A DNA stretch of 64,000 bases from a virus (taxonomy: Duplodnaviria > Caudoviricetes): the IMG/VR virus record IMGVR_UViG_3300049926_000039, positions 5,804-69,803 of that record. One strand, given 5' to 3'. A program made the translations under genes and the position numbers. Of the stretch, positions 18,068 through 51,233 are shown piece after piece; position 1 is the first letter of the stretch; every line of letters starts with the position of its first letter. The notes below the pieces were generated by a model. It did no database searches. It was given only the letters and a program-made list of their open reading frames with translations, and was not told where the DNA came from.

Positions 18068-18068
18068 C

Positions 18069-18809: not shown

Positions 18810-18821
18810 GGGAGCGCCGTC

Positions 18822-25208: not shown

Positions 25209-25302
25209 GGGCGACCCGGCGCCCACGCGCCCATCTCTCGCGGGAACGGCAACCACTGTGCTCAGGCGGTTTCGCCGGGTCGCACGATCAGGGTAGCGGT
25301 CG

Positions 25303-26940
25303 ATGACCATCCCCGTGCCCCTGTCGGTGCGGCTCCGCACCGACCTGCAGGACATCCACATCACCGACGACATCGCGGACCTGTCGTTCGGCAACGCCTC
25401 CCCGGGCGGGTACACCGAATGCACGACGTCACTGTTCCGGCCGATCTCGTTCACGCCGGGGGAGGTGGCGCAGTTCGGGCGGATGTACGTGTACGACGGC
25501 ACCAACGGGAACGTCGTGTGGGAAGGGATCATGCAGGACCCCGGGCGTAGTTCGGGGCAGGGCGGGGACACGTTCGAACTGGCCGCGGTCGGCGGGTCCA
25601 CCTGCCTGCAAGACGACACCCGGCAGCTCTACTACGTCGACACCGACTTCAACCACTTCATAAAGATCGACAACACGACGGCGGCCAGCCAGATCGACCA
25701 GATCTCCGACGTGAACCTGGCTGGGGACTCGGTCATGCAGTTGCGGATCCCGCAGGGCACCGCCGTGGACGGCGCGATCCCGTCGTTGTGCGTGTCCGGG
25801 CACGTCGGGATCGCTGAGGCGGGGCAGAAATTGGCCCGGGTGTCGTTCGACTGGGACACGGGACTGACCGCCGCAACCCTGACCTCGGCCCTGTACGCGG
25901 CGACCACAGGTGTGGGCGCCGCTGACGTGGCATGGTCCGCCACGTTCAACTCGGCCGGTGGAACCATCTCCCGGGTAGTCGGCACCGACTGGACGAACGG
26001 CCGGAACCGGCCCATCATCCGGTTCCACTACACCGGCGCGGCGGGCAACGTCAGCGCCGACACGTGGTGGCTGCAAATCTCCAACCTCGTCGTCCGGACC
26101 ATGCTGTACCTGCGCGACGGCACCGAACGGACCTCCCCGTACTCCACCGACACCCTGCTCGCCTCGGAGGTCGTCGCGGACCTGCTCGGCCGTATCCTAG
26201 GCGCGCAGATCGACGGCGCCAACGCCACCATCGCAGTGACGACCTACCTGATCGAACACCTCGTCTACCCGGACGGGGTCAACCCCGCGCAGGTGCTCGA
26301 CGACATGATCGCGTTCGAGCGGGCGTACACCTATCACGTGTGGGACTCCAACCCGAACAACGACCTGTTCCGGTTCGAGTGGGTCCCGTGGCCCTCGGTG
26401 ATCCGGTATGAGGCGGACGTCCTCGACGGGTTCTCCGCCCCCGCATCGGGGAACACCATCTACGACCGGGTCATGGTGCGCTGGCACAACCGGGGCGTCA
26501 CGCACGTGTCGCTGCGTACGCAGGTCGTGCCCGCCCTGGTCGCGGCGGGCTACTCCCGGACCGCGTACATCGACCTCGGCGACGAGGCGTCCACAGCGAC
26601 CAACGCGCACCAGGTCGGAGATCAGTTCCTGGCCGAGCATCAGTACCCGGTCAACGCCGGACGGCTGACGATCACCGGCCCGATCGTCGACTACCTGTAC
26701 GGCCGGATGGTCAACCCGTGGGAGATCCGGGCGGGGTCGTTGATCCGGGTGCGGGGAGTCGCGGCGTACACCGACAGTCTGAACAGCAACGGCCGGGACG
26801 GGCTGACCGTGTTCAAGGTCGCAGCCGTGTCGTACTCGGCCAGCGAATCGGCGGCGACGCTGGATCTCGACTCGTACGCCCCGTCCCTGGCCCGCGCCGT
26901 CGCTAAGATCGCTTCGCGCCCGTTCGTCCGGCGCCGATAG
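25303..26940 (+). CDS. minor tail (hub/Tal-like) protein
   Basis: 545 aa, LSFGNASPGGY...VVWEG pattern. Confidence 0.7.
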   Translation: MTIPVPLSVRLRTDLQDIHITDDIADLSFGNASPGGYTECTTSLFRPISFTPGEVAQFGRMYVYDGTNGNVVWEGIMQDPGRSSGQGGDTFELAAVGGSTCLQDDTRQLYYVDTDFNHFIKIDNTTAASQIDQISDVNLAGDSVMQLRIPQGTAVDGAIPSLCVSGHVGIAEAGQKLARVSFDWDTGLTAATLTSALYAATTGVGAADVAWSATFNSAGGTISRVVGTDWTNGRNRPIIRFHYTGAAGNVSADTWWLQISNLVVRTMLYLRDGTERTSPYSTDTLLASEVVADLLGRILGAQIDGANATIAVTTYLIEHLVYPDGVNPAQVLDDMIAFERAYTYHVWDSNPNNDLFRFEWVPWPSVIRYEADVLDGFSAPASGNTIYDRVMVRWHNRGVTHVSLRTQVVPALVAAGYSRTAYIDLGDEASTATNAHQVGDQFLAEHQYPVNAGRLTITGPIVDYLYGRMVNPWEIRAGSLIRVRGVAAYTDSLNSNGRDGLTVFKVAAVSYSASESAATLDLDSYAPSLARAVAKIASRPFVRRR

Positions 26941-28396: not shown

Positions 28397-28723
28397 CTAG
28401 GGTTCGCGCTCGGGCTGCCACGTGGCCGTCTTGCCGTTGCGGGCACGCTGCCATTCATAGGCGTGGTCGGGGCCGCAGAACAGAGGGTCCGCGCTGGCGT
28501 CGGCAAGCTCGACGGCGCACCACACGCACAGGTGCTCGGCCAGCCGCCTGTCCAGTTCGAGGCCAGTTGCCCGCTCGTAGATCACAGTCCCCCCCTCCGT
28601 GTCGCCCCACGGGTCGTCGCAGAGCATGTCCGGGAAGGGTGCCCGCAGGGGCGGAAGGACCATGTCGGCGGGTATCCCGAAGATGCGGGCGATCTGGGCC
28701 GACGTGAATCCACGCGAAGTCAC
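28397..28723 (-). CDS. hypothetical protein (CxxC...C)
   Basis: 108 aa, GTGA coupling. Confidence 0.55.
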   Translation of the reverse strand: MTSRGFTSAQIARIFGIPADMVLPPLRAPFPDMLCDDPWGDTEGGTVIYERATGLELDRRLAEHLCVWCAVELADASADPLFCGPDHAYEWQRARNGKTATWQPEREP

Positions 28724-28920
28724 GACTCCGCCCTCCGGCTCGCCTTGTACGCGGCGATGTCCTGGGGATCCCAGACCGGGCGGACGTGCGACCCGTCGAT
28801 CACCTTCGCCACCGGTCCGGGCGCCTGACCCCGGGACACGTACGCGCGCCACGTCGCCGGGGTCACGCCGAGGTTGGCAGCGATGTCCTCGGTGAACGGG
28901 CGGCCCTTATCGTCAGGCAT
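28720..28920 (-). CDS. AlpA/excisionase-like HTH protein
   Basis: EDIAANLGVTPATWRAYVSRGQAPGP...PVWD. Confidence 0.75.
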   Translation of the reverse strand: MPDDKGRPFTEDIAANLGVTPATWRAYVSRGQAPGPVAKVIDGSHVRPVWDPQDIAAYKASRRAES

Positions 28921-29137
28921 GACCCCTCCGTTCGCGTCTCTCCCGAATGACCGCTTCGAGAACCGCGACGTTCTGCTGGATCTCTTCGTTGCGGCGCACG
29001 GACGGCCGGAACCGCTCGTACGTTCGGCCGATGGCCAGCGTCATCACCAGCAACCGCAGCGGTAGGCGCTCGAACGCATCGCGCAGTCCAGCGAGGTGCT
29101 CGATGTGATCGTCAGTGGTCCACTCGTCGTCAGGCAC
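28913..29137 (-). CDS. hypothetical protein
   Basis: 74 aa coupled ORF. Confidence 0.5.
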   Translation of the reverse strand: MPDDEWTTDDHIEHLAGLRDAFERLPLRLLVMTLAIGRTYERFRPSVRRNEEIQQNVAVLEAVIRERRERRGHA

Positions 29138-29513
29138 GGGTACGGCCCTCGCACCACTCGGCCGCACGGCGGAGCGCACCCTCCACCATCTCGCCGTCGG
29201 CTGCCTCGTGGTCGTTCCAGTACACGATGGCGTCGATCGGCTCGGGGTCGGACGGCCAGCCGCGGAAGTAGTTCGGCTGAGGGTCGGCGGTGAGGTAGGC
29301 GAGCAGGCCTTCCGTCGCCGCGCGGGCGCGTAGGTCCTGCACGTCGATCCGGTACAACAGCCCAGGGTCGATCGCTGCGATGATCGCACCCCACGCGCAC
29401 ATGCACCCAGTGCTGCGATCGATCAGCTTCCCGCGGGCCCACCCGTTGACGTGCAGCAGGTGGGCAGCATCGCGTAGCGTCTCGGCCGCTGCGGCGTAGT
29501 CGGTCTCAGGCAT
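29130..29513 (-). CDS. DUF6197-like protein
   Basis: LRDAAHLLHVNGWARG...CAWGAI...WND...ALRRAA. Confidence 0.65.
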   Translation of the reverse strand: MPETDYAAAAETLRDAAHLLHVNGWARGKLIDRSTGCMCAWGAIIAAIDPGLLYRIDVQDLRARAATEGLLAYLTADPQPNYFRGWPSDPEPIDAIVYWNDHEAADGEMVEGALRRAAEWCEGRTRA

Positions 29514-29754
29514 GGGGATCGGTTCCCGTCTCGTCGTCCGTCCCGATGGGGGGCGTCTCATCGAGTAGCACGCGTGCAAGTACGCGCGCATGACGCGCCA
29601 TGAGTTCTTGGCGCGGGTTGCCCTTCGACCAGTACGGCATGTAACTGGGCCATGCCCCGCTCCCTCGCGAGGAGAGCTTGACCAGCCACAACCTCCCGAC
29701 GATCCGCCGCGTGGAGAGTTTGAAGACGAGGGGTGGGGTCGTCGGCTCAGCCAT
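29506..29754 (-). CDS. hypothetical protein, paralogue of 29747-29965
   Basis: STRRIVGRLWLVKL...YMPYWSKGNP. Confidence 0.6.
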   Translation of the reverse strand: MAEPTTPPLVFKLSTRRIVGRLWLVKLSSRGSGAWPSYMPYWSKGNPRQELMARHARVLARVLLDETPPIGTDDETGTDPHA

Positions 29755-29965
29755 GGGTACGGCCCTCGTCTCGTTGCGCAGCGCGCCACTCCAATACCCG
29801 AGCGAGCCGGTCAACGACGACCCGCCACGGGTCGCCCTTCGACCACCATGGCATGTACTTGGTTCCGCCGTGGCCCTGCTCTGCGAGCTTCACCAGCCAC
29901 AGGGACCCGACGAGCCGCCGCGTGGAGACTGTGATGATCCGGGACTCGGACGCAGGCTCAGGCAT
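29747..29965 (-). CDS. hypothetical protein, paralogue of 29506-29754
   Basis: STRRLVGSLWLVKL...YMPWWSKGDP. Confidence 0.6.
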   Translation of the reverse strand: MPEPASESRIITVSTRRLVGSLWLVKLAEQGHGGTKYMPWWSKGDPWRVVVDRLARVLEWRAAQRDEGRTHG

Positions 29966-30362
29966 GGCCCTGCTCCTCGCACCACGCGGCGGCCTTCTCC
30001 ATGGCCTGCACGACGATGCCCTCGGTCATGTCGTCCTGGTCGTTCCACTCCTCGATGCCGGATCCGTCGCCCACGATCGTGCCGTGGAACGGCTCCGGGT
30101 CATGAGCCAGGAATCGGCACAGCGTCGTCACCGCCGACCCGAAGACCGTGTCGTGATCGATCGCACGTATGGCGGTGACGTCAGTGATGATGAAACCGAT
30201 CTCAGAGTTCCGAGCGACGATCATCGCGCCAACGGCACAGACCGTGCCCGAATGCCGTATCAGGTTCCCCTGGGCCCACCCTCGGGTGCGGATGACGTCG
30301 GCGCTGGCGCGGAGGGTGTCGGCTGTCTCGGCAGCGGTGGCGGGTTCGAGATGGATGTTCAT
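29958..30362 (-). CDS. DUF6197-like protein
   Basis: LRASADVIRTRGWAQG...CAVGAM...WND...AMEKAA. Confidence 0.65.
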   Translation of the reverse strand: MNIHLEPATAAETADTLRASADVIRTRGWAQGNLIRHSGTVCAVGAMIVARNSEIGFIITDVTAIRAIDHDTVFGSAVTTLCRFLAHDPEPFHGTIVGDGSGIEEWNDQDDMTEGIVVQAMEKAAAWCEEQGHA

Positions 30363-30377
30363 GGGCGAGCCTTTCGG

Positions 30378-30614
30378 TCAGCCGAGGACACTCGGCATGG
30401 GCTTGTGCAGGACACGTTCGCGGGGGTCGCAGACGAGATGCCCGTCGGCGTCGCTGAAGATGGGCTCCATCCACCCCCGCACCGCGGGATGATCCACGCC
30501 GGTAAGGCGGATCGCAGAGTCGCAGTGCTGGCAGCGAAGCGGGAACTCAGGCACGGTGTCGGGCGTACCCGGACCGTGGACGAAGAACCGAACGACGGCA
30601 CGGAGCGGGTTCAC
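30378..30614 (-). CDS. hypothetical protein (CxxC)
   Basis: GTGA-coupled ORF. Confidence 0.5.
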   Translation of the reverse strand: MNPLRAVVRFFVHGPGTPDTVPEFPLRCQHCDSAIRLTGVDHPAVRGWMEPIFSDADGHLVCDPRERVLHKPMPSVLG

Positions 30615-30874
30615 GCTGGCCACCGCCTGCATTTCGAGCAGGGGACGGACGACACGAGTTGGTAGTCGTCCGTACTGATCACCGCGACCGTGGTGCCCTC
30701 CTGGATGACCACCTGCGCCTCGCCGATCTGCACCGTGGCCGTACCGGGCAGGAACACCGTGCGCACGTACATCGACGGGTCGGCCGGGAGGTGAGCGTGG
30801 GCAATAGCGGGATCGATGATCCGCAGCTCACAACAGTGTGAGGCCTTCAGGTCGATGGGTGCGGCATCCGTCAT
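30611..30874 (-). CDS. hypothetical protein
   Basis: 87 aa, own promoter upstream. Confidence 0.55.
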   Translation of the reverse strand: MTDAAPIDLKASHCCELRIIDPAIAHAHLPADPSMYVRTVFLPGTATVQIGEAQVVIQEGTTVAVISTDDYQLVSSVPCSKCRRWPA

Positions 30875-30911
30875 GCCCGGTACCGTACAACGCGCGTTGT
30901 ACTAATCGCAA
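30875..30911 (-). promoter_or_regulatory. leaderless promoter with 18-bp palindromic operator
   Basis: TTGCGA-N18-TACGGT-N7-ATG; perfect palindrome GTACAACGCGCGTTGTAC at 30885-30902. Confidence 0.65.
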
Positions 30912-31012
30912 GGGGGCCTTTACCGAGACGACGATGGCCTCACCCGTTGGACCGGGGAGGCCATCAACTACCTGTCGTCTGTCCCGATAAAGACCGGCCG
31001 TCAGGCGCCTAC

Positions 31013-31654
31013 CTACCGCCGAGGATACCGGGCCGCGCGGAACCCCGAACGCTGAGCGGTGTACAACATCCCGACCATGGCGTAGTCGTACGCCTCCGAC
31101 CACGCGTCGTCGTACTCGGGCCGCCACTCCTTGCCGGCGGCGTCGTGCAGCGTCTCGAACAGGATGCGCTTGACGGCCAGGTACTCGCCCACCGTCGCCC
31201 CCCGGATCGACCCGTCCGGGCGGTGGAACGCGGCGTGCGAACGGCCGAACGTCGCGAGGTGGGTATCGAGGATCGCCATCGACTCGGCGTCAGCTGGGTC
31301 GTACGTCTGAGACAGGGCGACCAGGGCGGCCAGCAGTTTGTCCCGCTGGCGCTTGCCCGGACTGTCGGTCTCCACCTCGGTAGCCGCGACCAGATCGGCG
31401 GGGAACAGCGCGGCAAGGCTGGGCGCGAAGTCGAGCAGGCGACGATAGAACTCGCGGACGGTGTCGTCGCCGTTGTCGCCGAGCAGGGCGATCGAACGGC
31501 GGAGCAGGTCGTTGGTCGTCAAGACGTTCCCCGTTCCCATGCAGTGCGGGCAAGGTTCCCTGGCGGCGGGCGTGTCAAGGGCGTGGACCCCCGAATCGGT
31601 CAGCGGGTCGGGGGACGGTAGCGGAGCGTCGGCGGTGCCAGTCGGCTCGGACAT
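31013..31654 (-). CDS. single-domain globin with N-terminal CxxCxGxG motif
   Basis: EFYRRL (B10 Tyr), ALFP (CD1 Phe), QRDKLLAAL (E7 Gln), FGRSH (F8 His), W...DAW..AYD; CPHCMGTG; RBS AAAGGAA. Confidence 0.8.
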   Translation of the reverse strand: MSEPTGTADAPLPSPDPLTDSGVHALDTPAAREPCPHCMGTGNVLTTNDLLRRSIALLGDNGDDTVREFYRRLLDFAPSLAALFPADLVAATEVETDSPGKRQRDKLLAALVALSQTYDPADAESMAILDTHLATFGRSHAAFHRPDGSIRGATVGEYLAVKRILFETLHDAAGKEWRPEYDDAWSEAYDYAMVGMLYTAQRSGFRAARYPRR

Positions 31655-31706
31655 GTTCGGTTCCTTTCGTCGGAAGGGCCACACGGTCGACTCCTCACAG
31701 GTCGGG

Positions 31707-31937
31707 TCAGAAGTACGGATTGGGCGGGACGTCGGTGATGCGACGGCGGAACTTGGGCTCGATCGGCTTCAGTTTCGGCCGATCCTCGTACCACTCCAGC
31801 CATTCGGCCTCGCCCCACTCGTCGGAGTCATTCGGCTCGTTCGGGTCCGGGCCGTCGGCGGGGTCCCACAGTTCCTCCGGGATCCACAGACGGCCGCGGT
31901 CGGGGTACCCGACGACCTTCCATCCGTCGTCGGTCAT
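31707..31937 (-). CDS. acidic hypothetical protein
   Basis: 76 aa MTDDGWKVVG... Confidence 0.55.
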   Translation of the reverse strand: MTDDGWKVVGYPDRGRLWIPEELWDPADGPDPNEPNDSDEWGEAEWLEWYEDRPKLKPIEPKFRRRITDVPPNPYF

Positions 31938-32360
31938 GGCATGATCCTTCGGATGGGACGGCATGTGGCACGCGAGCACAGACACCGCCGTACGGTCGCG
32001 GTGAACGCCCGGCGCGCGGTGATGACGGCCGGGGCGGTGGTCGTGGTGACGACGGCGGGGGCGATCGTGCCGCTGCACCTCGCGCCCATACCGACGCAGG
32101 CAACCCCGATATTCGTTACGCCCATACGCGTCTCGCCTGCCCCGTCGCCCACCCGTGCCGAACCCCGCGCCACGAAGCCGACCACCCCCGCCCGGACGGA
32201 TAGGGACACGGGGGCGACGCCGCACAGGGCCGTACAGCGGGCTAACACCAGCGCCCCCCGGGACGGCGGAAAGACATCCGGGCGTATGGCCGGCGGCGGT
32301 GCACTAGCAGCCACGGGCGACGGGCGGGACGGTACCCACGCCATCTCGGGCTCCCACCCT

Positions 32361-32765
32361 TCACAACAGCACGCTCCCCAGAAACCCGCAGAACAACAGC
32401 AGGGTCAGCGCGGTCAGCGAGCCGAGCACGTACGCCAGAGTCGCCGACTCCCAGGTGTACCGGTCGGGCGGGGGGCGGTCCGGGATCTCGGCGGTCAGCA
32501 CGCGGTCCATCTCGGCGAGCTCCTGCGCCCGCACCCACGTCCTGATCAGCAGCCGGGTGTCCCCCGGATCCATCCTGCGCAGGTCGGCCAGCGGGATGCC
32601 CGACCGGATGGAGAACAGTTCGAGCTCGGCGCCGGGCCGCAGCATCCGCTCGGTGTCCGTCAGCGTGCGAGGGTCGGCGCGGATCAGCCGCACAAGATCC
32701 CGCTCTCGCCACTCGGCGAGGGGCGACCGTCGGGGCGGCCGACTAGATCTGACATGTTCCTGCAC
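32361..32765 (-). CDS. hypothetical protein with C-terminal TM helix
   Basis: RBS GAGGAGG, 134 aa. Confidence 0.55.
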   Translation of the reverse strand: MQEHVRSSRPPRRSPLAEWRERDLVRLIRADPRTLTDTERMLRPGAELELFSIRSGIPLADLRRMDPGDTRLLIRTWVRAQELAEMDRVLTAEIPDRPPPDRYTWESATLAYVLGSLTALTLLLFCGFLGSVLL

Positions 32766-33183
32766 GGGTACGCCTCCTCGGGTTGTGGTGATCGTTGGCG
32801 AGATCTTCACCCGCAAGCGCGCCATCCCGAATGGCCGCACGCTCCGCAGCTCGAGCAGCGGAGCGATCGGGCAGCCAACGGATCGGCACCATCACGCCGG
32901 TGGACTGCCGCATCCACCACTCATCGTCGGGATCGGTGAGGTGCCGCGACCCGCGCACCTCGGGCTCGTTCGAGATGCCGTAGTAGATCGGCCGCAGCGT
33001 CGTCGCCCACAGGTAGCAGTACAACAGGTGGGGCACATCGGCGCGGACCGGACGGCGGACGGGCAGCGCCCGGGGGGGCGGTAGTTGCTGCACCGCATCC
33101 TGCGCACGCCACCTGGCGATCTGCACGATCAGGGCCAGCACCAGCCACGCGGTGAGGGTGAGCAGAACGAGTCCGAGCGTCAT
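32743..33183 (-). CDS. N-terminally membrane-anchored GIY-YIG nuclease
   Basis: TM helix then LLYCY...IYYGIS...RGSRH...AERAAI...LAN. Confidence 0.65.
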   Translation of the reverse strand: MTLGLVLLTLTAWLVLALIVQIARWRAQDAVQQLPPPRALPVRRPVRADVPHLLYCYLWATTLRPIYYGISNEPEVRGSRHLTDPDDEWWMRQSTGVMVPIRWLPDRSAARAAERAAIRDGALAGEDLANDHHNPRRRTRAGTCQI

Positions 33184-33419
33184 CGGGCCCACATCGCAGC
33201 CACCGCGGCTGCCATGCCACCGGCCATGCCCATCAGTCCGGACACGATCAGCAGCACGTCCACCGACAGCGAGTCCGCACCCTGCCGGTGCATCCACGCC
33301 CACATGCACCCGACCAGCACCATGAAGCCGAGGGCGGTCAGGGCTACGGCGGCACCCATCCACCGGACGACCCGGCGCTGCACGACGAACTCCGTCTGAC
33401 CCCGGGTGCTGTGACTCAT
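33180..33419 (-). CDS. small two-TM membrane protein
   Basis: 79 aa, ATGA coupling. Confidence 0.6.
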   Translation of the reverse strand: MSHSTRGQTEFVVQRRVVRWMGAAVALTALGFMVLVGCMWAWMHRQGADSLSVDVLLIVSGLMGMAGGMAAAVAAMWAR

Positions 33420-33805
33420 GACGGCCGCCACTCCTCGCGGTATCCGGGCTTATCGGCGTACGGCAACGCGCGTATCTTGACGGCGGTCAACAGGCCGTAC
33501 GCCTCGCCCGCAGGCGCCTCGCGGTGCAGGTCGTAGTAGGTCCGGGCTTGTTCGTACTCGTCCAATAGCCGTCGGTCGGCGGCCACCTCGGCCAGCACGC
33601 GGGCCGGGTCCCAGCGGGCGATGTGCACGGGATTCACCTTCGACCACGGCCCGCCACTGAAGCCTTCCGAGACGGTGAGGCCCTGGTCGTAGGAGTGCAC
33701 GTCCTCGCCGGACCTGCTCACCGTCCACGGGCCCGGCGTCGCTCCCCGTGCCACCCGCTCGTCCTCATCGAGCTGGGCGCGCAGCCAGGTCACCAGGCCG
33801 TTCAT
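33416..33805 (-). CDS. DUF6221-like protein
   Basis: WLRAQLDEDERVA...HIARWDPARVLAEVAADRRLL...ALPYADKPGYREEWRP. Confidence 0.75.
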   Translation of the reverse strand: MNGLVTWLRAQLDEDERVARGATPGPWTVSRSGEDVHSYDQGLTVSEGFSGGPWSKVNPVHIARWDPARVLAEVAADRRLLDEYEQARTYYDLHREAPAGEAYGLLTAVKIRALPYADKPGYREEWRPS

Positions 33806-34191
33806 CGCGGCATCGCCACATACGCGAGGGCCAGCAGGGCGACGCCGGCGACCAGCACCCCGTGCCACCACATCGGGCGCGGGGGGCGGCCGGTCGCGAG
33901 GGCCATCTGCCGGGCCTGCACCCCGGTCACGGCGTAGGTCGACGCCACATAGGCGAGCAGGGCGAAGAACCCGAGGGATGCCGCCGCGAACGCGATGGTG
34001 CGGTGGTCGACGTGGAACCACATCCACGCGCACCCGATCGCGACCAGGACGAATCCGACAGCCCACGGAATCCAGCCGCCGAACAGAATCAGGTAGGCGT
34101 GATCGTGCCCGACTTTCCGGTTCGCGGCGAGACGGCGGATCTCGCGGTCGTGGGTCCGCCGCTCGGCGGAGCTGACATATCGGCGGGCCAT
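33802..34191 (-). CDS. membrane protein (possible Spd-like spread protein)
   Basis: three TM helices, downstream of tra genes. Confidence 0.55.
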   Translation of the reverse strand: MARRYVSSAERRTHDREIRRLAANRKVGHDHAYLILFGGWIPWAVGFVLVAIGCAWMWFHVDHRTIAFAAASLGFFALLAYVASTYAVTGVQARQMALATGRPPRPMWWHGVLVAGVALLALAYVAMPR

Positions 34192-34206
34192 CGGTTCGTC
34201 CTGTCT

Positions 34207-34545
34207 CTAGATCTTCAGTCTGACGCCGGAGACTCTGCGCTTGGCGTCAGCCGTCTCTACCGCCTGCGCGGCGAGGCTGGCCTGATTGCGGAGCCGGTCG
34301 ATCCGACCCTCGATCATGCCGAGGTACTCCTCGATCTTCGCGATGTCCTGCTCGACTACGCGACCGTGGTAGGAGCTGAGGGCTTGCGCGTCCGGGCCGC
34401 CGGCGTACTCGTAAGCCGCGCGGATGAGGTCGCCCACTCCGATCTGTACGGGGTTGAGTTCGCGGCGGGCGGTCCGGACATCGCGCTTGTGCGCCAACAG
34501 GCGGGCAAGCAATTGGGCGAGTCCGTCGGGTGTGCGGATGGTCAT
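34207..34545 (-). CDS. hypothetical protein in transfer operon
   Basis: 112 aa helical/coiled-coil. Confidence 0.6.
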   Translation of the reverse strand: MTIRTPDGLAQLLARLLAHKRDVRTARRELNPVQIGVGDLIRAAYEYAGGPDAQALSSYHGRVVEQDIAKIEEYLGMIEGRIDRLRNQASLAAQAVETADAKRRVSGVRLKI

Positions 34546-34585
34546 TACGGGCGTTCCTTTCGGCGAGCGTTGCGGATGGGGCGGG

Positions 34586-34954
34586 TCAGACCTTGAGGGT
34601 GGAACCCTTCTTCTCCCGCTCGGCGCGGGCGACGGCGACGGGCACCACGACGAGGCGGACGAAGTCGATGTTGGCGGCTTTCATGTAGAACGCGGCCGAG
34701 GTCATGTGCTCGGCGGAGCGCTGCATCTGCCGGATGACCCGGTTGGCCGACTTGTTGGCGTCCGACCCGATCCCGAGCCGGTTGGTCCCGTCGAGCCCCC
34801 ACTGACGCAGGGTGGCGACGATGCGGGGATGCAGCGCGGCGGCGGTGTTGAGGGACTGGTCGGCGCCCTGCATGAGCCCGGCGCGGAAGGCGTCGGTCAT
34901 TTGCTTCATGTCCTCGGCGGTGTAGATGTCGATCCTCGGGGGGAACGTCGGCAT
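34586..34954 (-). CDS. TraA-like plasmid transfer accessory protein
   Basis: size, helical pattern (PRIDIYTAEDMKQ...ANRVIRQMQRSAE) and position next to traB resemble Streptomyces plasmid TraA; weak recall. Confidence 0.45.
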   Translation of the reverse strand: MPTFPPRIDIYTAEDMKQMTDAFRAGLMQGADQSLNTAAALHPRIVATLRQWGLDGTNRLGIGSDANKSANRVIRQMQRSAEHMTSAAFYMKAANIDFVRLVVVPVAVARAEREKKGSTLKV

Positions 34955-34959
34955 GGCGA

Positions 34960-35155
34960 GCCTCTTTCTGCTGACTTTCTGGCTACGGTCTGTGACTTGA
35001 CGGACTTTCCGTGATCACTTAATCTATGACAAACGCTGTCTTTCCGCTGAGTTTCCAACGACTTGAATCCTCTCTTTCCGGGCGGAAAGTCGGCCGATCT
35101 CCTTAGGTCGCGTCCCTCCCTCTGCCCGACTTTCCACTCCCGCGACTTTCCGGGC
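34960..35155. repeat. clt-like locus: 8-bp GACTTTCC repeats directly downstream of traB
   Basis: exact GACTTTCC at 35003, 35128, 35144, inverted at 35084; variants at 34973, 35038, 35049, 35072. Confidence 0.7.
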
Positions 35156-35164
35156 CTGCGGACG

Positions 35165-37345
35165 TCACGCACCGTGCGTGCGCGGGCCCGCGATGTACGT
35201 GAGCAGGTAGTGCCCGCGCACGCCGTCCCGCTCGATCGTGAGCCCCGGAGGCGAGACGAACTTGCCCTCATCGCACAGTCCCGTGAACCGCTTCGAGATC
35301 CACGACTCGGACGGCTGGACGACCATCTCGGCCACCACGTCCGCGTTCGTGAACCGCATGACCTTGCGCTCGGCCATCCTGACCAGCGCGGCGTCGAACT
35401 CGGCCACCGCGTGCTCGGGCGACGACGGGCGGGGCTTCAGTCCCGGGCCGTCCAACTCGATGTTCTGGCCGTCACCGAGCGGCTCGACCGGCTCGCGCGG
35501 GTCGCCGTACTCGGCGCGTTCCTCCGCTGTGGGCGCGGCCGGAGCATCCGGGTCCAAGTCTTCGCCCAGGTCGTCGCCGTCGAGCTCCATCGTTTGCTGC
35601 ATGTCGGTCCCTTCGCTTGCGTTTGCGCTGGTCACGGTCGTGACAGCGGGCTCTGCGTCGTCCTCGCCCTTCGCGCCGAACATGACCGCGGACGGGCGGC
35701 ACAGGTTCCACACGGGGCCGAGCACGCTGATCTCCTCATCGGTGAAGGTCGCCGGCGTGAACGTGGTCCGCGCCTTGAGCACCGCCTCGCGAAGGTCGCC
35801 GTAGTCCTCGCGGGTCTCGTAGGTGCGGCAGTCGATCGGGTACCGGGTCGGGTCCACCCCCGGCGCCTTGTCGAGGTAGTGGGCGCCCGGGACGCTGGCC
35901 GCGAACTGTTCGGCGTTGGCGCCCGCCTCGCGGGTCTCGTCCGAGATGACGAACGCCGAGTCATAGTCCTGCGTGATCCCGAACTGCTTCCACGCGCCGA
36001 CCGCCGCGCGGACGTCGGTGGACAGCGCCGTACCGACCGCGCGGGGCAGGGTGATCGACAGGCGGAAGCCGAGCGAACGGCCCTTGGTGGCCAGCCACTC
36101 GAAGTTCGCGCCCTCCTTCACGATGTCGAACTCGTCCGCGAAGATGTAGATGAACGGCATGCCCGTCGTGTACGCGGCGGCGGCGTTGAAATTGCGGTAT
36201 CCGCTCAGCGCGTCCGCCCGGTATTTGCCAAGCCTGCGCAACGCAGCGAAGAGCGCGAGCGACTGCGCACGCGAAGCCGAGGCGAGCGTGCACATGTCCA
36301 GGCACCATCCTGCGTTCTGCATGATCTTCGCTTGGTCGATGTAGATGGCGACGACATCGGTTCGCGAAAGAACCTCCGCGATCTCGATCGCCGCGTCGCC
36401 CGACTTCCCCGAACCGGTCATGCCCTGTCGACCGAGGAACACGTCGTTCGGGGAGCGAAACTTCGGTGCGACCCGGGAGCGAAGTTCGTCTGGGGTTCGC
36501 GCGAAGGAGAACCACTGCGGCGCCCCGTCGGAGTAGTACGCGGTGCGAATCGGCGCAGCGAAGCTTTCGCCCGGGTGAGACAACCCCGGCCACGGGCGCC
36601 ACGTCTTGTGCGGGTCGGTGTGCACGAGGCGAATCTGCGAGGTCCCGCCGCGTTCGGCGGGCACGATCGAACTTCGCCCGCGAATGATTCCGGGGTTCTC
36701 CTCCAGCGCGGGCAACGCACTTCGCAGTTGCGAGATCGGTACGCCCGTATGGTCGATGGTCGCGGTCACCGCGAACTCGTCGCCGTCGATAGTGTTCGCG
36801 CGGATGCGTGCGCCCTTCGGCCACTTCAGCAGGTCCGCCAGGCCGCCGCCCTCTTCGCCCGAGCTGGTCGCCGCGCGGAACGCGTCGATGCGGTAGAGCA
36901 GCCACGTCCCCGCGAAGAAGATCGAGCACAGCAGGTAGATCACCGCAGCGGACGCGGGGACCGTGAACACGTCCGCGATCCGGTTCCACCAGTGCGGCCC
37001 AGTCCGGTGCCAGCCGAGGATTACGCCGATCGAGACGGCCACCGCGAACGCCTCGATGGTGAGCGCGACGTGCCAGATCACGAACGGGATCCGCTTGGTC
37101 ACCTTGTGGCCGATGCCCAGCGCCACCCCGGGGCCGACCGTGCCGAACAGGAACAGCGACAGCCAGACCATCATCCACTTCAGTTCGGGGCTGAAGAACA
37201 GGAAGAACCGCAGCACGATGACCAGGGCGGGGACGCCGAACAGGGCCGTGAGCAGCACCGATAGGAACGGCTGTGCCCGGTCGTCGGGCTCCCGCTTGCG
37301 GGGGTTCCGCTCGCTGGTGACGTTGACGTTCGATGTCCGGCTCAC
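35165..37345 (-). CDS. traB: TraB-family FtsK/SpoIIIE conjugative DNA translocase
   Basis: N-terminal TM helices, Walker A GMTGSGKS, Walker B IFADE, C-terminal winged helix (SESWISKRFTGLCDEG...GHYLL). Confidence 0.85.
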   Translation of the reverse strand: MSRTSNVNVTSERNPRKREPDDRAQPFLSVLLTALFGVPALVIVLRFFLFFSPELKWMMVWLSLFLFGTVGPGVALGIGHKVTKRIPFVIWHVALTIEAFAVAVSIGVILGWHRTGPHWWNRIADVFTVPASAAVIYLLCSIFFAGTWLLYRIDAFRAATSSGEEGGGLADLLKWPKGARIRANTIDGDEFAVTATIDHTGVPISQLRSALPALEENPGIIRGRSSIVPAERGGTSQIRLVHTDPHKTWRPWPGLSHPGESFAAPIRTAYYSDGAPQWFSFARTPDELRSRVAPKFRSPNDVFLGRQGMTGSGKSGDAAIEIAEVLSRTDVVAIYIDQAKIMQNAGWCLDMCTLASASRAQSLALFAALRRLGKYRADALSGYRNFNAAAAYTTGMPFIYIFADEFDIVKEGANFEWLATKGRSLGFRLSITLPRAVGTALSTDVRAAVGAWKQFGITQDYDSAFVISDETREAGANAEQFAASVPGAHYLDKAPGVDPTRYPIDCRTYETREDYGDLREAVLKARTTFTPATFTDEEISVLGPVWNLCRPSAVMFGAKGEDDAEPAVTTVTSANASEGTDMQQTMELDGDDLGEDLDPDAPAAPTAEERAEYGDPREPVEPLGDGQNIELDGPGLKPRPSSPEHAVAEFDAALVRMAERKVMRFTNADVVAEMVVQPSESWISKRFTGLCDEGKFVSPPGLTIERDGVRGHYLLTYIAGPRTHGA

Positions 37346-38439
37346 GTGCTCACCCCTACCTCTGGCGCAGCGCCGTTGACGTGCTGGTCGGGGGCGGCCG
37401 GCGGGGTGAATTCGCCCAGCGTCAGCCCGTGCCGCCTGCGGTAGTCCTTAACCCATAGCTCAATGGAGCGCTTCGACTTGCCTACCTCCTTGGCGAGGTC
37501 GGCGGCACGCTCACCACCCTCGACCACCCTGCGGGCGAAGACGTCACGGCGGTCCCGATCTCCGTCCTTACTGCCCCGTTCCGGGAAGTTTGGGCGGGAA
37601 TCTCGCGGCGGTGGGGCCGACGCCACGTCTACAGACGGCGGGCGGATCTCCGCCTTAACGCCGCGGGGCATGGGGGCACGCCGTTGCGGCTTCAGCCCGC
37701 CGATTAGCCGACGGTTGTAAATCGGATGCTCAGCGTCGACCAGCACGCGCTCAGCGATCAGGGCATCATCGAGAGTCGGGTACGGCTCGAAAGTCCAGCG
37801 CACGACCAGGGGGAACCACTCTGTTGACTGCGCTTTGTGGGACCGCACGCGCGCGGGAAAGTCGGCAGTCGAACCGATGTACAGCGGCGGGATGGGGTCC
37901 TCCCCGAGCGCGCGGTAGACGCCAGGCTGCCTCGCGCCGAGATCCAGATCGACCGGGACCCCTGCCGCAACGCTCGCCTCCGCCACGACCTCCACCGGGT
38001 CCGGCTGGATCGACCGCCGTCGCCGCTTCAGCTCGAAGAGGCACATCGACGTGACAACAATCAGGCCGTCCACCGACAGCGGGAGGAGGTGCGAATACTC
38101 TTCGCCGTACCGCGAAGCGACGGCCGTCATATGCCAGTACGAAACCCAGGCAGCGACCGCCCCGACGACGCCCGCAGCAACGTAGCGAATCGCCGAGGCG
38201 AGCGAACGGCCGGCGGGCATGTACGACAGGAACTCGACCACAGCGAAGAACGCAAGCGGTGCCCAGGCGGCAATGACCCTGCCCACGAGCGAAGGTTGGG
38301 CGTGCATCGCGTTCGCGAAGACGGACGCCGCGACGCCCGCCGCCAGGCCGAAGCGAACCGCCCAGACGAGGGCGCCACGGGGGGACGCGGCCCCGCCGAT
38401 CTTCGCATCTACAAGCTTCGCTTCGCTCCTGGTCTTCAT
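37342..38439 (-). CDS. DUF2637 (SpdA-like) membrane domain + GIY-YIG + HTH fusion
   Basis: VAASVFANAMHA...AWVSYWHM...LPLSVDGLIVV; GVY...LYIGST...RVRSH...IAE...PIYN; C-terminal AADLAKEVGKSKRSIELW. Confidence 0.75.
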   Translation of the reverse strand: MKTRSEAKLVDAKIGGAASPRGALVWAVRFGLAAGVAASVFANAMHAQPSLVGRVIAAWAPLAFFAVVEFLSYMPAGRSLASAIRYVAAGVVGAVAAWVSYWHMTAVASRYGEEYSHLLPLSVDGLIVVTSMCLFELKRRRRSIQPDPVEVVAEASVAAGVPVDLDLGARQPGVYRALGEDPIPPLYIGSTADFPARVRSHKAQSTEWFPLVVRWTFEPYPTLDDALIAERVLVDAEHPIYNRRLIGGLKPQRRAPMPRGVKAEIRPPSVDVASAPPPRDSRPNFPERGSKDGDRDRRDVFARRVVEGGERAADLAKEVGKSKRSIELWVKDYRRRHGLTLGEFTPPAAPDQHVNGAAPEVGVST

Positions 38440-38508
38440 GGTTTCGCAGAGTACAGGAGGCACGCGACTTGCGCGACTAACGACACTTGGTATGGCAAGA
38501 TGGTTCGC

Positions 38509-38778
38509 ATGAGCAGCGAAGCGAAGGACGCGGCCCCCGAACCCCGCGAAACGATGACGACCGAGCAGGCAGCGAAGATCCTCGACACGTCGCGTGCGAC
38601 GGTGATCCGTCTCTGCGAAGCGGGGGCCATCGAGCACCGGTGGACTTCGCCCGGGACCGGCCGCGAAGATCGCAACGGGCATCCGCTTCGCGGTCACCGC
38701 CGTCTGTACGCGGATTCGGTGCGCGCGTACGCGGGTCAGCGGGACGCTCCGACGACCCCCGAAGATTCGTCCGCCTGA
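38509..38778 (+). CDS. excisionase/BldC-like HTH regulator, divergent from transfer operon
   Basis: MTTEQAAKILDTSRATVIRLCEAG...GHRRLYADSV. Confidence 0.75.
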   Translation: MSSEAKDAAPEPRETMTTEQAAKILDTSRATVIRLCEAGAIEHRWTSPGTGREDRNGHPLRGHRRLYADSVRAYAGQRDAPTTPEDSSA

Positions 38779-38811
38779 CACCCTTGACACTTAACCGATT
38801 TCGGTTAACGT
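38776..38811 (+). promoter_or_regulatory. repeated early promoter with palindromic operator (copy 1)
   Basis: TTGACA-N16-TAACGT overlapping TTAACCGATTTCGGTTAA. Confidence 0.8.
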
Positions 38812-38849
38812 TAGGGGTGTCAGTTACCGACGCACCCCCGGGAGTCACG

Positions 38850-39752
38850 ATGACCCACCCGATCACCTTCCCGAAGACCTCCGCCGACACGTGGACCAAC
38901 CACGAGACCGGCGTAGAGATCGTTGTGTACGGCAAGGGCTACCGCGCATTCCGTCCCGCCGACACGTCGACCGGGTCCATCGGCCTCTGCCGGGAGGTTC
39001 GGACGCTGGCCGAGGCCCGCCACCACGCCGCCCGATTCATCGCCGATGTCGCCCGTCCGGCCATCGCCGAGGCGTGGGACGAGGCGCATCGGTCTGAGAT
39101 GTCGGAACGGCGCGCTGCGGCCATGGAGCGCATGGAGCGCGAGAACGCCGAGGCGATGGAGCGCGCGAGCGACCGTCAGGTCGACGCGTGGCAGGTACGG
39201 CACGAGGACACCCCGCGCGTGAGCGCCTACTGGATGATCGACGCTCGCGAGGCCGACCACGCCGAGGCGCTGGTCGAGAACACCGAGCGGCTCGCCCGTG
39301 AGGTCTCGCTGAACGGGATCAAGAACGCCCGCCCCACCGCCGCCGCACGGGTCCACTCCTGCGGCAACCCGATGACCCCGAGCGTCTTCGGCCCGCACGA
39401 CCCCACCTTCCAGTACCGCTCTCAGCCGATCTGGCTGTGCACACGATGCGACAAGTGGGAGCCCCGGGACGGATGGGACGGCCCACTGCCCGAGGCGCCG
39501 AACGAGGACGCCCACCCGTACGCCGCCGAACGTCAGCGCTCGGTCGACGGGTTCCGGGGAGCCGCTCGCAAACTGTGGCGCAACCGGGCCGAAGGTCACG
39601 AGTACCCCGACGTGTCGCGATCCCTGCGGAACACCATGCGCACCTACGCCCGCGTCGTACGCACGTGGGACGACCTCGCCGTCGTTGCCGCACAGGCCGC
39701 ACGGTCCGACGCGTACTTCGCCACCACCGACGCCTACACCTGCACGTACTGA
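38850..39752 (+). CDS. hypothetical protein
   Basis: 300 aa, RBS GGGAG. Confidence 0.65.
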   Translation: MTHPITFPKTSADTWTNHETGVEIVVYGKGYRAFRPADTSTGSIGLCREVRTLAEARHHAARFIADVARPAIAEAWDEAHRSEMSERRAAAMERMERENAEAMERASDRQVDAWQVRHEDTPRVSAYWMIDAREADHAEALVENTERLAREVSLNGIKNARPTAAARVHSCGNPMTPSVFGPHDPTFQYRSQPIWLCTRCDKWEPRDGWDGPLPEAPNEDAHPYAAERQRSVDGFRGAARKLWRNRAEGHEYPDVSRSLRNTMRTYARVVRTWDDLAVVAAQAARSDAYFATTDAYTCTY

Positions 39753-39774
39753 TCGCCCGGGGAAGGGGACCACC

Positions 39775-39996
39775 ATGGCTCGCGCAGAGATAGATCTAAA
39801 CACGCTCAAGATCGGTGACTGCGTGGTCATCAGTGGCGGCGGCACCACCCAAGGATTCGGGTGGAAGACGCGGATCAAGCGCATCACCCCCACGCTGATC
39901 GTCTGCGAGAACGGCCACCGGTTCAACCGGACTACGGGATACCCGAGCCCGCACGGCGACAACTACGCCACGATCGTCCGCGTCATCACCGACTGA
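39775..39996 (+). CDS. hypothetical protein
   Basis: 73 aa SH3-like beta pattern. Confidence 0.6.
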   Translation: MARAEIDLNTLKIGDCVVISGGGTTQGFGWKTRIKRITPTLIVCENGHRFNRTTGYPSPHGDNYATIVRVITD

Positions 39997-40025
39997 AACC
40001 CACCCTCGCCCGAAAGGATCAACCC

Positions 40026-44690: not shown

Positions 44691-44914
44691 GCGGCGACAG
44701 GCGGGCGGCGAAGATCGCGGCATACGACCAGGCCGAGGCGCGGGCGGTGGACATCCTGATGTCGCACGTCGCCGAACTCGACGGGCAGGACTCGGCCGTG
44801 GCGGGCGTCGCCCTGTCGAGGTGGCTCGACCGTCAGGCGTTGAGCCGGTACGCCCTGGCCTCGCTGCTCGCCGCGGTGGCGCTGCGGCTGTACCGATCGG
44901 AGGGCGGCCGGTGA
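44687..44914 (+). CDS. hypothetical protein
   Basis: 75 aa, GTGA coupling. Confidence 0.55.
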   Translation: MSGDRRAAKIAAYDQAEARAVDILMSHVAELDGQDSAVAGVALSRWLDRQALSRYALASLLAAVALRLYRSEGGR

Positions 44915-45753
44915 GAGTCGTACGCAAGGACGGGTCTAAGAACCATTGGTACATCGACCTCGACGCCGACGGTGCGCGGGTACCCGGCGTGACCTCCATC
45001 ATCGATGCCGGGACGCCAAAGAAGGGCCTCATCAACTGGGCAGGCAACGAGACCGCCGCATACACGCTCGATCACTGGGACGAGCTCGCCAAGCTCAGCC
45101 CTGCCGCGCGACTGAAGAAGATGCAGGGCGGACGGTACGAGAACCTGGACAAGGCATCCAACCAGGGCACGGCCGTACACAAGATGGGCGAACGGATCAT
45201 TCGCGGGGAGCGAGTCACCGTCCCCGATCTACTCCTGCCCTTCGTCAAGTCGTACGTGCGATTCATCGACGAATTCCAGCTACGAGCCCGTTACGTCGAG
45301 GCGCTGGTGTACTCGGAGACGCACCAGTACTGCGGACAGCTCGACATCTTTGGCGACATCCTGCTACCCGACATGCCCGAATACGATCATCTGCCGCGCG
45401 ATGACGACGGGTTCGTCTGCGACTGCCTGATCGACGCGAAGACCGGACGAACCGGGGTCTACGGCGAGACCGCGCTGCAACTCTCGGGGTACCGGTTCGC
45501 GGAGTACATGCAGACCGACCCGCGCGATCCGGACACCGCGTTCCCGATGCCCGAGGTGACATGGACAGGCGCCGTATGGATCCGGCCGGACGGGTACTCG
45601 CTCCTGCCTGTCGTCACCGGAGAAGAGCAGTACCGGACGTTTCGCTACGTCCGCGAGGTCGGAGAGTTCGACAAGGATTCCCGCGACCTGATCGGTACGC
45701 CGATCGAGCCGCCCACCGCGTCCACCTACACGCTCGCCAAGGTTGAGGACTGA
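44911..45753 (+). CDS. PD-(D/E)XK exonuclease (RecE/Cas4-like)
   Basis: GTAVH...YCGQLD...LIDAKTG...LQLSGY. Confidence 0.8.
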   Translation: MRVVRKDGSKNHWYIDLDADGARVPGVTSIIDAGTPKKGLINWAGNETAAYTLDHWDELAKLSPAARLKKMQGGRYENLDKASNQGTAVHKMGERIIRGERVTVPDLLLPFVKSYVRFIDEFQLRARYVEALVYSETHQYCGQLDIFGDILLPDMPEYDHLPRDDDGFVCDCLIDAKTGRTGVYGETALQLSGYRFAEYMQTDPRDPDTAFPMPEVTWTGAVWIRPDGYSLLPVVTGEEQYRTFRYVREVGEFDKDSRDLIGTPIEPPTASTYTLAKVED

Positions 45754-45756
45754 CCC

Positions 45757-46740
45757 ATGACCGAACCGCTGACCAGGGAACAGGCTGAGAAGGCCGACCA
45801 CATCCTCCGCAATCGCACCCCGAACCTGAACAAGGCGCTCGCCGCGTTCCAGGCCGAAATGCCCGCGCTCGAACGGGACCGACACGTTGACGTAGAGACG
45901 AAAGATCCAAGCAAGGCGTATGGGTACAGCTACGCCACCCTCGCCAACGTGACCGCCGTCGCCATGCCGCTGCTCGGCAAGCACGGGCTCAGCTTCACCG
46001 CGTTCCCAGGTGCCGGGTCCGACGGCAAGGGCATGTCGCTGAAGTACTCACTGCTCCACGAGTCTGGGGAAGAGCGGACGGGGGAGTGGCCATTCTCCGC
46101 CGAGGGCGGGATACAGATCCTCGGCGGGCGTCTTACCTACCTACGTCGCTATTGCCTGCTCGCCGTAACCGGGCTCGCCGCGGCCGAAGACGACGACGCG
46201 GCCGCCGCTCAGGCCGAGGACGAGGCCAACGCCGGGACGGTGCAGCGCCGGCAGCGGCCGCCCGTAAAGGCCACGGCCCGCCCCGCTACCGCCACCACCC
46301 GGGCGCCCGCCCTGGGCGCTGCGGAGGGCGAGACCGTACAGCGTCAGCGCCCGGCCAGTCCGCCGCTCCCGGGCGAAGAGGCCGACACTCCCACCGTGCC
46401 GATGCAGCGCAAGCTCGCTATTCAGTTCGGCCAGCTCGAAGTGACCGATCGGGACGAACGGCTGGCCCTGATGACCGACATGATCGGACGACCGATCACC
46501 TCGATCAAGGATCTGACCAAGAGCGAGGCGCACGCCGCGATCGACGCCATCGACAAGGCGCTGAAGACCGACAACCCGCTCACGTCGATGCTGGAGATCT
46601 ACCAGCGCACCTCGGCCGAACCTGCCGCAGCCGAGGGCCGTCCCGCCGGCCAGCGGTCGCGCAACGCCCGCGAGGCGGTCACCAACGGCGGAGACGAGGG
46701 CGCGGAAGAGGCGCCGTGGGAAGGACAGATGCCGGTATGA
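45757..46740 (+). CDS. ERF-family single-strand annealing protein
   Basis: YSYATLANV...LLGKHGLSF...TYLRRYCLLAVTGLAAAEDDDA. Confidence 0.85.
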   Translation: MTEPLTREQAEKADHILRNRTPNLNKALAAFQAEMPALERDRHVDVETKDPSKAYGYSYATLANVTAVAMPLLGKHGLSFTAFPGAGSDGKGMSLKYSLLHESGEERTGEWPFSAEGGIQILGGRLTYLRRYCLLAVTGLAAAEDDDAAAAQAEDEANAGTVQRRQRPPVKATARPATATTRAPALGAAEGETVQRQRPASPPLPGEEADTPTVPMQRKLAIQFGQLEVTDRDERLALMTDMIGRPITSIKDLTKSEAHAAIDAIDKALKTDNPLTSMLEIYQRTSAEPAAAEGRPAGQRSRNAREAVTNGGDEGAEEAPWEGQMPV

Positions 46741-47102
46741 ACGACTTCCGCGTCCTAGTAACGGGCGCGCGTGTCGTCTCGCCGCGGGTCGTGGTCGTCG
46801 TTCAAGGAGAATGCCCGTACGGCGGCGTTGACCTCGTGGCGAAGAAGTGGGCCGAAGGTTCGCCGGGGGTGGCATCGGAAGGTCACCCAGCCGAATGGGA
46901 TCGACTGGGCAGGAGGGCCGGTCCGGTCCGTAACGCGCACATGGTCAGCCTCGGCGCCGATGTGTGCCTAGCCTTCCCGGCCAAGGGCTCGCGCGGCACG
47001 TGGGACTGCCTTCAGCGGGCCGTGGACGCCGGGATTCCGTCGCACCTGTATCCGCTGCACATCCGAGAGGACGACGAGCGGGAAGGGGAGATGCCGATAT
47101 GA
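46737..47102 (+). CDS. SLOG-family (DUF2493-like) protein
   Basis: RVLVTG...VQGECPYGGVD...AEWDRLGRRAGPVRNAHM...CLAFP...SRGT. Confidence 0.8.
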   Translation: MNDFRVLVTGARVVSPRVVVVVQGECPYGGVDLVAKKWAEGSPGVASEGHPAEWDRLGRRAGPVRNAHMVSLGADVCLAFPAKGSRGTWDCLQRAVDAGIPSHLYPLHIREDDEREGEMPI

Positions 47103-47284
47103 CCGCGACCTCCATCATCGCGGGAGTAGCCATCCTGCTCGCCGTGTTCGCCGTCGTGTTCATCGGCATGGCCCGAACGGCGGGCATCAAGGAAGCCCTC
47201 GTTTCTTGGGCGTACGCGCTGGGGTTCACGGGCGCCATTCTCGCGGGAGCCTTTCTGATCTCCGCAGGGATGGGGAAGCTATGA
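47099..47284 (+). CDS. small membrane protein
   Basis: two TM helices. Confidence 0.55.
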   Translation: MTATSIIAGVAILLAVFAVVFIGMARTAGIKEALVSWAYALGFTGAILAGAFLISAGMGKL

Positions 47285-47634: not shown

Positions 47635-47725
47635 CCAGCGCGGCATGGGAATGGATCTCAGTGGGGGTATCTGGTCTCGCTGGCATCGCCATCGGGATGT
47701 TCATCGCTTGCACGGGCCGACGGCG

Positions 47726-49246: not shown

Positions 49247-49333
49247 TCCCCCGGCCGGGCTACGCGCCTCACTGGACCGTGGCCCGACCGGGCCGTTCCG
49301 CATCCGCGTTCGAGAACGGAGAGAACAGACCCG

Positions 49334-49923: not shown

Positions 49924-49940
49924 ACCCTGGAAGGATCCAC

Positions 49941-51226: not shown

Positions 51227-51233
51227 CCATGCT

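Follow-up and report, generated by a model that had tools for sequence, protein, structure and literature searches.

A TraB-type translocase gene and an adjoining clt-like repeat array in a clade of uncultured tailed phages

Why would a tailed phage carry a DNA pump of the kind found on conjugative actinomycete plasmids? The question is raised by positions 33802-38778 of a 64,000-nucleotide stretch of viral DNA ("the window"), which covers bases 5804-69803 of the 69,803-bp IMG/VR virus record IMGVR_UViG_3300049926_000039. Here a gene for a TraB/FtsK-type translocase (g63, or traB) is followed by a cluster of short repeats resembling a plasmid clt site, within a genome that is otherwise of ordinary siphovirus layout. 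From its sequence, we put the chances as even that this locus is a phage-borne TraB/clt system moving phage double-stranded DNA between hyphal compartments or between hyphae. In such a system, g63 would form a membrane-anchored hexameric pump of the FtsK/TraB type, and its C-terminal winged helix would read the 8-bp GGAAAGTC repeats just past its own gene, which would load the pump onto the phage genome. Acting together with a co-translated membrane protein that carries DUF2637 and helix-turn-helix (HTH) domains, and with small membrane proteins encoded downstream, the pump would push unprocessed phage DNA through the cross-walls of hyphae or into hyphae that touch. Virions would then not be needed for an infection, or a carrier state, to spread through the mycelium. 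A divergently encoded HTH_17 protein probably controls the operon. The DNA binding, the pumping, the partners and any transfer in this scheme are deduced from homology and anatomy.

Gene g63 (35165-37345, minus strand) encodes a predicted membrane-anchored double-stranded DNA translocase of 726 residues, in which an FtsK motor follows four N-terminal transmembrane (TM) helices and a disordered linker leads on to a winged helix at the C-terminus. The ATPase motifs are intact: Walker A (GMTGSGKS), Walker B (FADEFD, with its DEFD) and the arginines are invariant across 35 homologues. The protein is a distant homologue of the NCBIfam family plasmid_TraB (NF041214; 5e-60, residues 235-696). By tblastn it matches 26 actinomycete plasmids, including pJV1 and several with annotated TraBs; identity is 24-35% for Streptomyces TraBs, and the best plasmid match is the pCQ3 TraB (34.6% identity, 7e-27). 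The top-ranking matches, pJV1 and pCQ3 among them, are plasmid TraBs of functional type. An AlphaFold (AF2) model built from the 35 homologues has a pLDDT of 80, and in Foldseek it retrieves the FtsK motor first (5.6e-14; TM-score 0.62-0.64, depending on the target), then TcpA and EccC. Membrane association is indicated by four hydrophobic helices (residues 27-144) modelled at pLDDT 85-93, and the C-terminal domain, folded alone, is a winged helix (pLDDT 89). In the ESM Atlas, the clusters closest to g63 consist of actinobacterial TraB. Of 1.8 billion cluster representatives searched with a profile, 594 match; about 45 of these are full-length, and they grade into the general TraB family. A profile run against PDB sequences reaches FtsK only at E 0.17. 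Judged by these comparisons, g63 is a genuine but strongly diverged TraB. Among 50,697 phage records tblastn finds no homologue, which places g63 outside the common phage FtsK-like family.

The repeats occupy the 210-bp spacer at 34955-35164, which begins directly past the traB stop codon. On the minus strand it holds seven to nine copies of GGAAAGTC (GACTTTCC on the plus strand), mostly direct, with one inverted. Seven of them match with at most one mismatch, where 0.13 are expected (Poisson P ~1e-10), and two further copies are weaker. Elsewhere in the 64 kb the exact word occurs only three times. A cluster of short direct and inverted repeats adjoining a tra gene, which is the anatomy of a clt, is thus found here, and it recurs at the equivalent spot in nine relatives (L006, L007, L008, L009, L012 and L129-L132), where 3-13 copies are built from other words. 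The arrays share a layout in which two copies lie 16 bp from each other and, past a gap of about 44 bp, an inverted copy is followed by direct copies at 9-12 bp spacing. In every array the gap contains a conserved GGACGCG...TAAGG element, just upstream of the next genes.

The TraB of plasmid pSVH1 recognises repeats of 8 bp with helix alpha3 of its winged helix-turn-helix, and the Tra protein of pWTY27 binds a clt located right beside the 3' end of tra (PMC3583192). Across ten genomes, the repeat word of the phage arrays follows helix 3 of the TraB winged helix. Helix ISKRF goes with GGAAA(G/C) in the window genome, L012, L008 and L130; CSERF goes with TGGAAG in L006, where the array repeat is TGGAAGCG, and in L131; ISERF goes with TGAAGAG in L129; and SR(R/W) goes with CTGCAA in L132 and L009. 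At 56% identity the L129 TraB is one of the closest overall, but its helix 3 and its word both differ, which argues against pure kinship as the cause. The HTH of the divergent HTH_17 protein stays constant across genomes whose 8-mer arrays differ and shows no co-variation with them, so this regulator is a poor candidate reader of the array. The pairing of word and helix 3 is as expected if the array is a clt cognate to its own TraB.

The proposed partners surround the pump. All genes of the module but the HTH_17 gene lie on the minus strand, in the order g64, g63, the 210-bp spacer, g62, g61, g60 and a DUF6221 gene. The 365-residue g64 product (37342-38439) combines a DUF2637-type membrane domain (Pfam 6.4e-9, above the cut-off, with predicted TM segments), a GIY-YIG-like insertion and a C-terminal HTH, and the stop codon of its gene overlaps the traB start (4-bp overlap with g63). 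Multi-TM orthologues with a C-terminal HTH precede traB in eight relatives. The GIY-YIG-like segment (37690-37930, residues ~170-250; phrog endonuclease 2.9e-7, NCBIfam Cho 7e-4) is missing from all eight and is an insertion. No phage record gives a tblastn match to g64.

Past the array, g62 (34586-34954) encodes a soluble protein of 122 residues that is conserved in relatives (46% identity in G001, a complete one). Next come g61 (34207-34545), whose soluble 112-residue product has no family match, and g60 (33802-34191), which encodes a small membrane protein of 129 residues with three TM helices predicted by hydropathy. The g59 product (33416-33805) is a DUF6221 protein (Pfam 2.7e-30) of the same leftward block. 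The initial annotation had listed a DUF2637 gene, traB, clt-like repeats, a membrane gene and a divergent HTH gene here, and each is borne out by the family matches, the array statistics and the three TM helices of g60. Its "traA-like" gene is not: g62 and its neighbours have no NCBIfam match to TraA at E<=1 and none in a Pfam set that did not include PF28214, and in hhalign the g62 family scores 0.4% against pCQ3 TraA and 24% against a weakly TraA-like protein. As a separate observation, the gene directly after traB at L134 (12376-12708) has a precomputed weak match to Pfam PF28214, "TraA-like"; L134, a TraB-like locus only distantly related (profile E 2e-86), has phage holin and tail genes in its vicinity. 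The "Spd-like" label of the same annotation is likewise unsupported, as g60-g62 match no family and g64 matches DUF2637 only, with no demonstrated homology to SpdB2 or any other characterised Spd. The resemblance to Spd genes is restricted to the presence of small membrane proteins adjoining traB, and g60 may be called Spd-like only by analogy.

The HTH_17 gene (38512-38778, plus strand) encodes an 88-residue protein of the MerR/Xis/BldC type (Pfam HTH_17 9.6e-8), with orthologues of 83-129 residues at the equivalent place in relatives, and its product is probably the regulator of the module. A second repeat system lies around it. Between 38100 and 38700, GCGAAG/CTTCGC words reach 15 hexamers per 600 bp, against 1.5 per kb in the window as a whole. 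This first zone, 1200-600 nt upstream of traB, takes in the HTH_17 gene together with the divergent intergenic region and the g64 5' end, and its word is clustered at the equivalent place in nine of ten relatives. A second zone of GCGAA/TTCGC words (36140-36910; 11 hexamers in ~775 bp) lies inside the traB coding sequence, and nine of ten relatives likewise keep this enrichment, located +600 to +1200 nt into traB. Each zone holds 17-37 copies of GCGAA(G)/(C)TTCGC per 800 bp, in both orientations and several reading frames. The zones recur in L006, L007, L012, L014 and L129-L132, and the word is constant among genomes with differing 8-mer arrays. As a guess, they are operators where the HTH_17 protein binds in a switch of the kil/kor type.

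The module is a shared trait of a group of phages. Seventy-four proteins are 42-57% identical to g63, many of them encoded on 62-72-kb contigs from independent metagenomes. In all 12 loci inspected there is an HTH_17 gene, a divergent multi-TM/HTH gene coupled to traB and then small genes, and the whole set lies between ERF and tail genes. Two IMG/VR relatives, G001 and G002, are complete (terminal repeats of 127 and 123 bp); their virion genes are 45-75% identical to those of the phage studied here, and their TraBs 43% and 35%. Twenty other viral contigs with a capsid 52-60% identical, seven of them complete, show no traB gene in a search that had no positive control of its own; the module is a trait of a subclade and not of the capsid lineage. 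No cultured member of the clade is apparent in the phage collection, in which TerL and TraB have no close match: TerL is at most ~25% identical to any isolate, and blastn of 33000-40000 against phage records gives no match. No TraB relative turns up when 185,579 species genomes are searched by pattern. Prophages of Micromonospora, Streptomyces, Nonomuraea and Nocardioides do encode capsid relatives (52-62% identity), and the mycelial growth of the first three hosts would favour a system for transfer between hyphae.

Searched in all six frames, the entire 69.8-kb record yields no tyrosine or serine recombinase, no ParA and no ParB. The absence of an integrase that the initial annotation had noted is thus upheld, and G001 and G002 lack integrase, ParA and ParB as well; the lifestyle could accordingly be lytic, a carrier state or episomal. 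The label of phage-plasmid proposed in the same annotation is unsupported, since no plasmid maintenance gene is present in this record or the two complete relatives (ParA, ParB and recombinases were covered, and no search for a plasmid Rep was made). The DnaB, DnaN, helicase and ERF/exonuclease genes of the window are ordinary phage genes and are not evidence of a plasmid replicon: DnaB and DnaN are confirmed, and the "initiator" that was to complete the replicon is not identified. Of the dual-mode element that had been suggested, an intact TraB-type translocase with a clt-like array in a tailed phage stands, and the plasmid half is without support.

The missing integrase and partition genes also suggest a different use for the same parts. 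Pump and site might serve segregation, passing a phage genome kept outside the chromosome, in a carrier or pseudolysogenic state, to the compartments of the hyphae and to spores, as a stand-in for ParABS or an integrase and akin to the way FtsK/SpoIIIE clears DNA through closing septa. We regard this as unlikely. It would suit a genome that, like both complete relatives, encodes no integrase, ParA or ParB, and it would suit a g63 fold that is closest to FtsK. The module also belongs to the leftward block that separates the tail genes from the early genes, the site of maintenance genes in temperate siphoviruses, and this block holds accessory genes (a globin gene and two DUF6197 genes). However, neither a repressor nor anything else indicative of a stable non-lytic state is found, and the g63 sequence resembles conjugative TraBs more closely than it does chromosomal FtsK. 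Segregation overlaps mechanistically with spread inside the mycelium, so sequence cannot separate the two.

Rather improbable, in our judgement, is that the repeats are operators or promoter elements of the downstream operon and that the ATPase exports no DNA, working instead in concatemer handling, in manipulation of the host nucleoid, or against plasmids, the integrative and conjugative elements of actinomycetes (AICEs) or superinfecting phages. The GGACGCG...TAAGG element of every array, placed as it is just ahead of the next genes, fits this reading; so do the three relatives that have no array, and the FtsK-like genes of lytic Streptomyces phages for which replication or developmental roles have been suggested (PMC11536984, PMC13587820). 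Three observations point the other way. The four TM helices, and a multi-TM partner whose translation is coupled to that of g63, suggest a membrane pore and not a cytoplasmic enzyme, the repeat word tracks the pump's own winged helix and not the HTH_17 regulator, and the 50,697 phage records hold no tblastn homologue of g63. Finally, TraB-type genes are normally the property of plasmids and AICEs, and an integrase, a DUF2637 gene and a TraB-like gene beside virion genes in a Nonomuraea prophage (strain NPDC049480) can also be read as a tandem AICE, but a recent insertion of an AICE or plasmid fragment into a prophage, which the initial annotation had itself raised, or an assembly artefact joining two elements, is very improbable and was rejected on conserved synteny and the lack of an integrase: the position and neighbours of the module are constant in 12 of 12 relatives from independent samples and sources, GC and third-position GC (GC3) are uniform, no integrase, tRNA or att-like feature is found, and TraB divergence between relatives (43%, 35%) parallels that of the virion genes. 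Nor does the element have the make-up of an AICE (integrase with att, Rep and FtsK-like Tra), being a 70-kb phage without integrase or tRNA.

Several points weigh against a TraB/clt system for moving phage DNA. The 204 bits of the g63 match to NF041214 lie far below the equivalog cut-off of 800, making g63 a distant homologue and not an equivalog, and Pfam FtsK_SpoIIIE gives no match at 0.01. A fold search with the C-terminal domain retrieves generic winged helices only (best E 0.06), with no match to FtsK-gamma. The co-variation comes from a sample of ten related genomes, the more distant relatives L010, L013 and L014 have no array after traB, and the conserved promoter-like element inside the array means that the repeats could be operators. 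Among 72,556 plasmids tblastn finds no match to g64; homology to SpdB2 is not demonstrated. Lytic Streptomyces phages commonly have FtsK-like genes without a known role (PMC11536984, PMC13587820). The phage studied here is uncultured, and for a strictly lytic phage the slow pumping of DNA may be of little benefit. The broader claim, that a whole clade of tailed phages without integrase or partition genes, possibly strictly lytic, moves its replicating genomes by a conjugation-type pump and a private clt, is possible but doubtful; if it held, the phages would spread inside a multicellular bacterium with no extracellular step, bypassing receptors and surface defences.

The closest parallels to a phage-borne TraB/clt system are plasmid-phages. 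According to its citation in PMC3583192, pZL12 is a plasmid-phage whose transfer requires a major tra gene; the initial annotation named this precedent correctly (it is also cited in PMC4487206), and pCQ3 is the same combination. Like the present phage, pZL12/phiZL12, pCQ3 (NC_013449) and pSLE1 unite tailed-phage virion genes and a TraB-type gene on one replicon in a mycelial actinomycete. In pCQ3 a DUF6197 gene (3.9e-14) lies just downstream of traB, and DUF6197 genes are also near traB here. Only ~6 of 108 genes are shared with pCQ3, however, none of them for capsid or tail. Both pCQ3 and pSLE1 carry ParA/ParB and tyrosine recombinases (PMC4487206), whereas this phage and its complete relatives carry none, and compared with the pCQ3 type the TraB here is far more divergent, with four TM helices and a DUF2637/HTH partner instead of an annotated TraA.

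The TraB/clt systems of pSVH1, pJV1, pWTY27 and pIJ101 also rely on a single membrane-associated FtsK-like translocase with a winged helix-turn-helix at its C-terminus (PMC3583192, PMC4447253), and they share with the phage module a clt of short direct repeats by the tra 3' end, nearby small membrane genes of Spd type and a divergent regulator. They differ in that their regulator is a GntR-type TraR and not an HTH_17 protein; the phage arrays have more repeat copies (7-15) and sit within phages of 62-72 kb. FtsK/SpoIIIE resembles g63 in its motor fold, N-terminal four-TM anchor, long linker, DNA-reading C-terminal winged helix (predicted here) and 8-bp target. The KOPS/SRS words it reads are dispersed and oriented along the genome, whereas the target here would be one local array. 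Actinophages phiC31 and VWB carry SpdB2 homologues that might spread phage DNA (Thoma et al. 2015, PMC4447253); these phages have no TraB, and the g64 of the present phage has no demonstrated SpdB2 homology. FtsK-superfamily genes are present in Streptomyces phages Geonosis, Mandalore, Naboo, Jaresh and AndoPrime (PMC11536984, PMC13587820, bioRxiv 2024.02.16.580700). The FtsK-like genes of the Geonosis type have no tblastn similarity to g63, and neither a cognate array nor a membrane partner is reported for them.

The combination of virion genes and TraB is therefore already published for pZL12/phiZL12, with pCQ3 and pSLE1 alike. What is new is a large uncultured clade that has neither integrase nor partition genes, a TraB with four TM helices that is very divergent and is coupled to a DUF2637/HTH protein, and a private repeat array that co-varies with helix 3. 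If the pump works, phages of filamentous actinomycetes would have a second, virion-free route of spread. This would change the view of phage predation, of plaque and pock formation and of defence in the main antibiotic-producing bacteria, and it would blur the boundary between phage and conjugative element well beyond pZL12, the single studied case. The system is small, comprising a pump gene, a single membrane partner and a site of 210 bp, and the natural variation of helix 3 and repeat word would offer a ready-made specificity code for TraB-type translocases.

Among the capsid-related prophages, that of Nonomuraea sp. NPDC049480 (L126/L127; contig 32, ~1.1-37 kb; capsid 60% identical) is the only one with a TraB-like gene beside virion genes. 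The gene encodes 672 residues on the strand opposite the tail genes, and its product is nearer to canonical TraBs (1e-59 to pCQ3) than to g63 (3e-20). Since it is of the canonical type, phages seem to have captured TraB more than once. Also encoded in the prophage are a tyrosine integrase, a BldC-like protein, an M48 peptidase and a DUF2637 protein (6.5e-21), and it may provide a cultured handle for phage-borne TraB.

The surrounding genome is that of a tailed phage (Caudoviricetes, siphovirus-like). Because the DNA is 67% G+C, its 108 genes were called by GC3. The initial annotation had asked for the genome to be completed. CheckV rates the record complete (100%) and the relatives supply a circular map, although no terminal repeats are detected and the last gene is truncated by the contig end. 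The gene order of G001 and G002 shows the contig to be the same circular map cut between g108 and g1, which points to a nearly complete genome in permuted form, opened in the stretch from early genes to lysin; a GH25-type lysin gene lies just beyond the window edge. The virion module (7474-26940, plus strand) bears out the earlier statement that head and tail genes are apparently intact. Family matches identify TerL (phrog_9, 7474-9135), a portal (9749-11050), a protease (11064-12746), an HK97-type major head protein (phrog_2263, 12959-14428) and a tape measure (20359-23778), with minor tail proteins up to 26940. The protease is a single 560-residue protein that fuses a Peptidase_S78 prohead protease domain (4e-17) to a ClpP-type domain (1.6e-27), and its match to G001 is limited to the first 229 residues. 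The early and replication genes (44911-58849, plus strand) encode an exonuclease, ERF, a RuvC-like protein, a helicase, a methylase, DnaN (54840-56000) and DnaB (57470-58849).

The leftward block that holds the TraB module comprises 17 genes (28397-38439). Its two DUF6197 genes, g50 and g51, lie at 29130-30362 on the minus strand (Pfam 2.2e-17 and 3.7e-16). A second small TM protein with a GIY-YIG-like domain is encoded at 32743-33192. Near the start of the window (1156-1338) lies a gene for a 60-residue HTH_17/MerR protein (7e-15), named "BldC-like" in the initial annotation, which is 80% identical to a G002 gene product and 46% identical to that of the Nonomuraea prophage. The globin-domain gene of the leftward block (31013-31684; Pfam 5.4e-7) has counterparts in the equivalent block of relatives L131 and L132.

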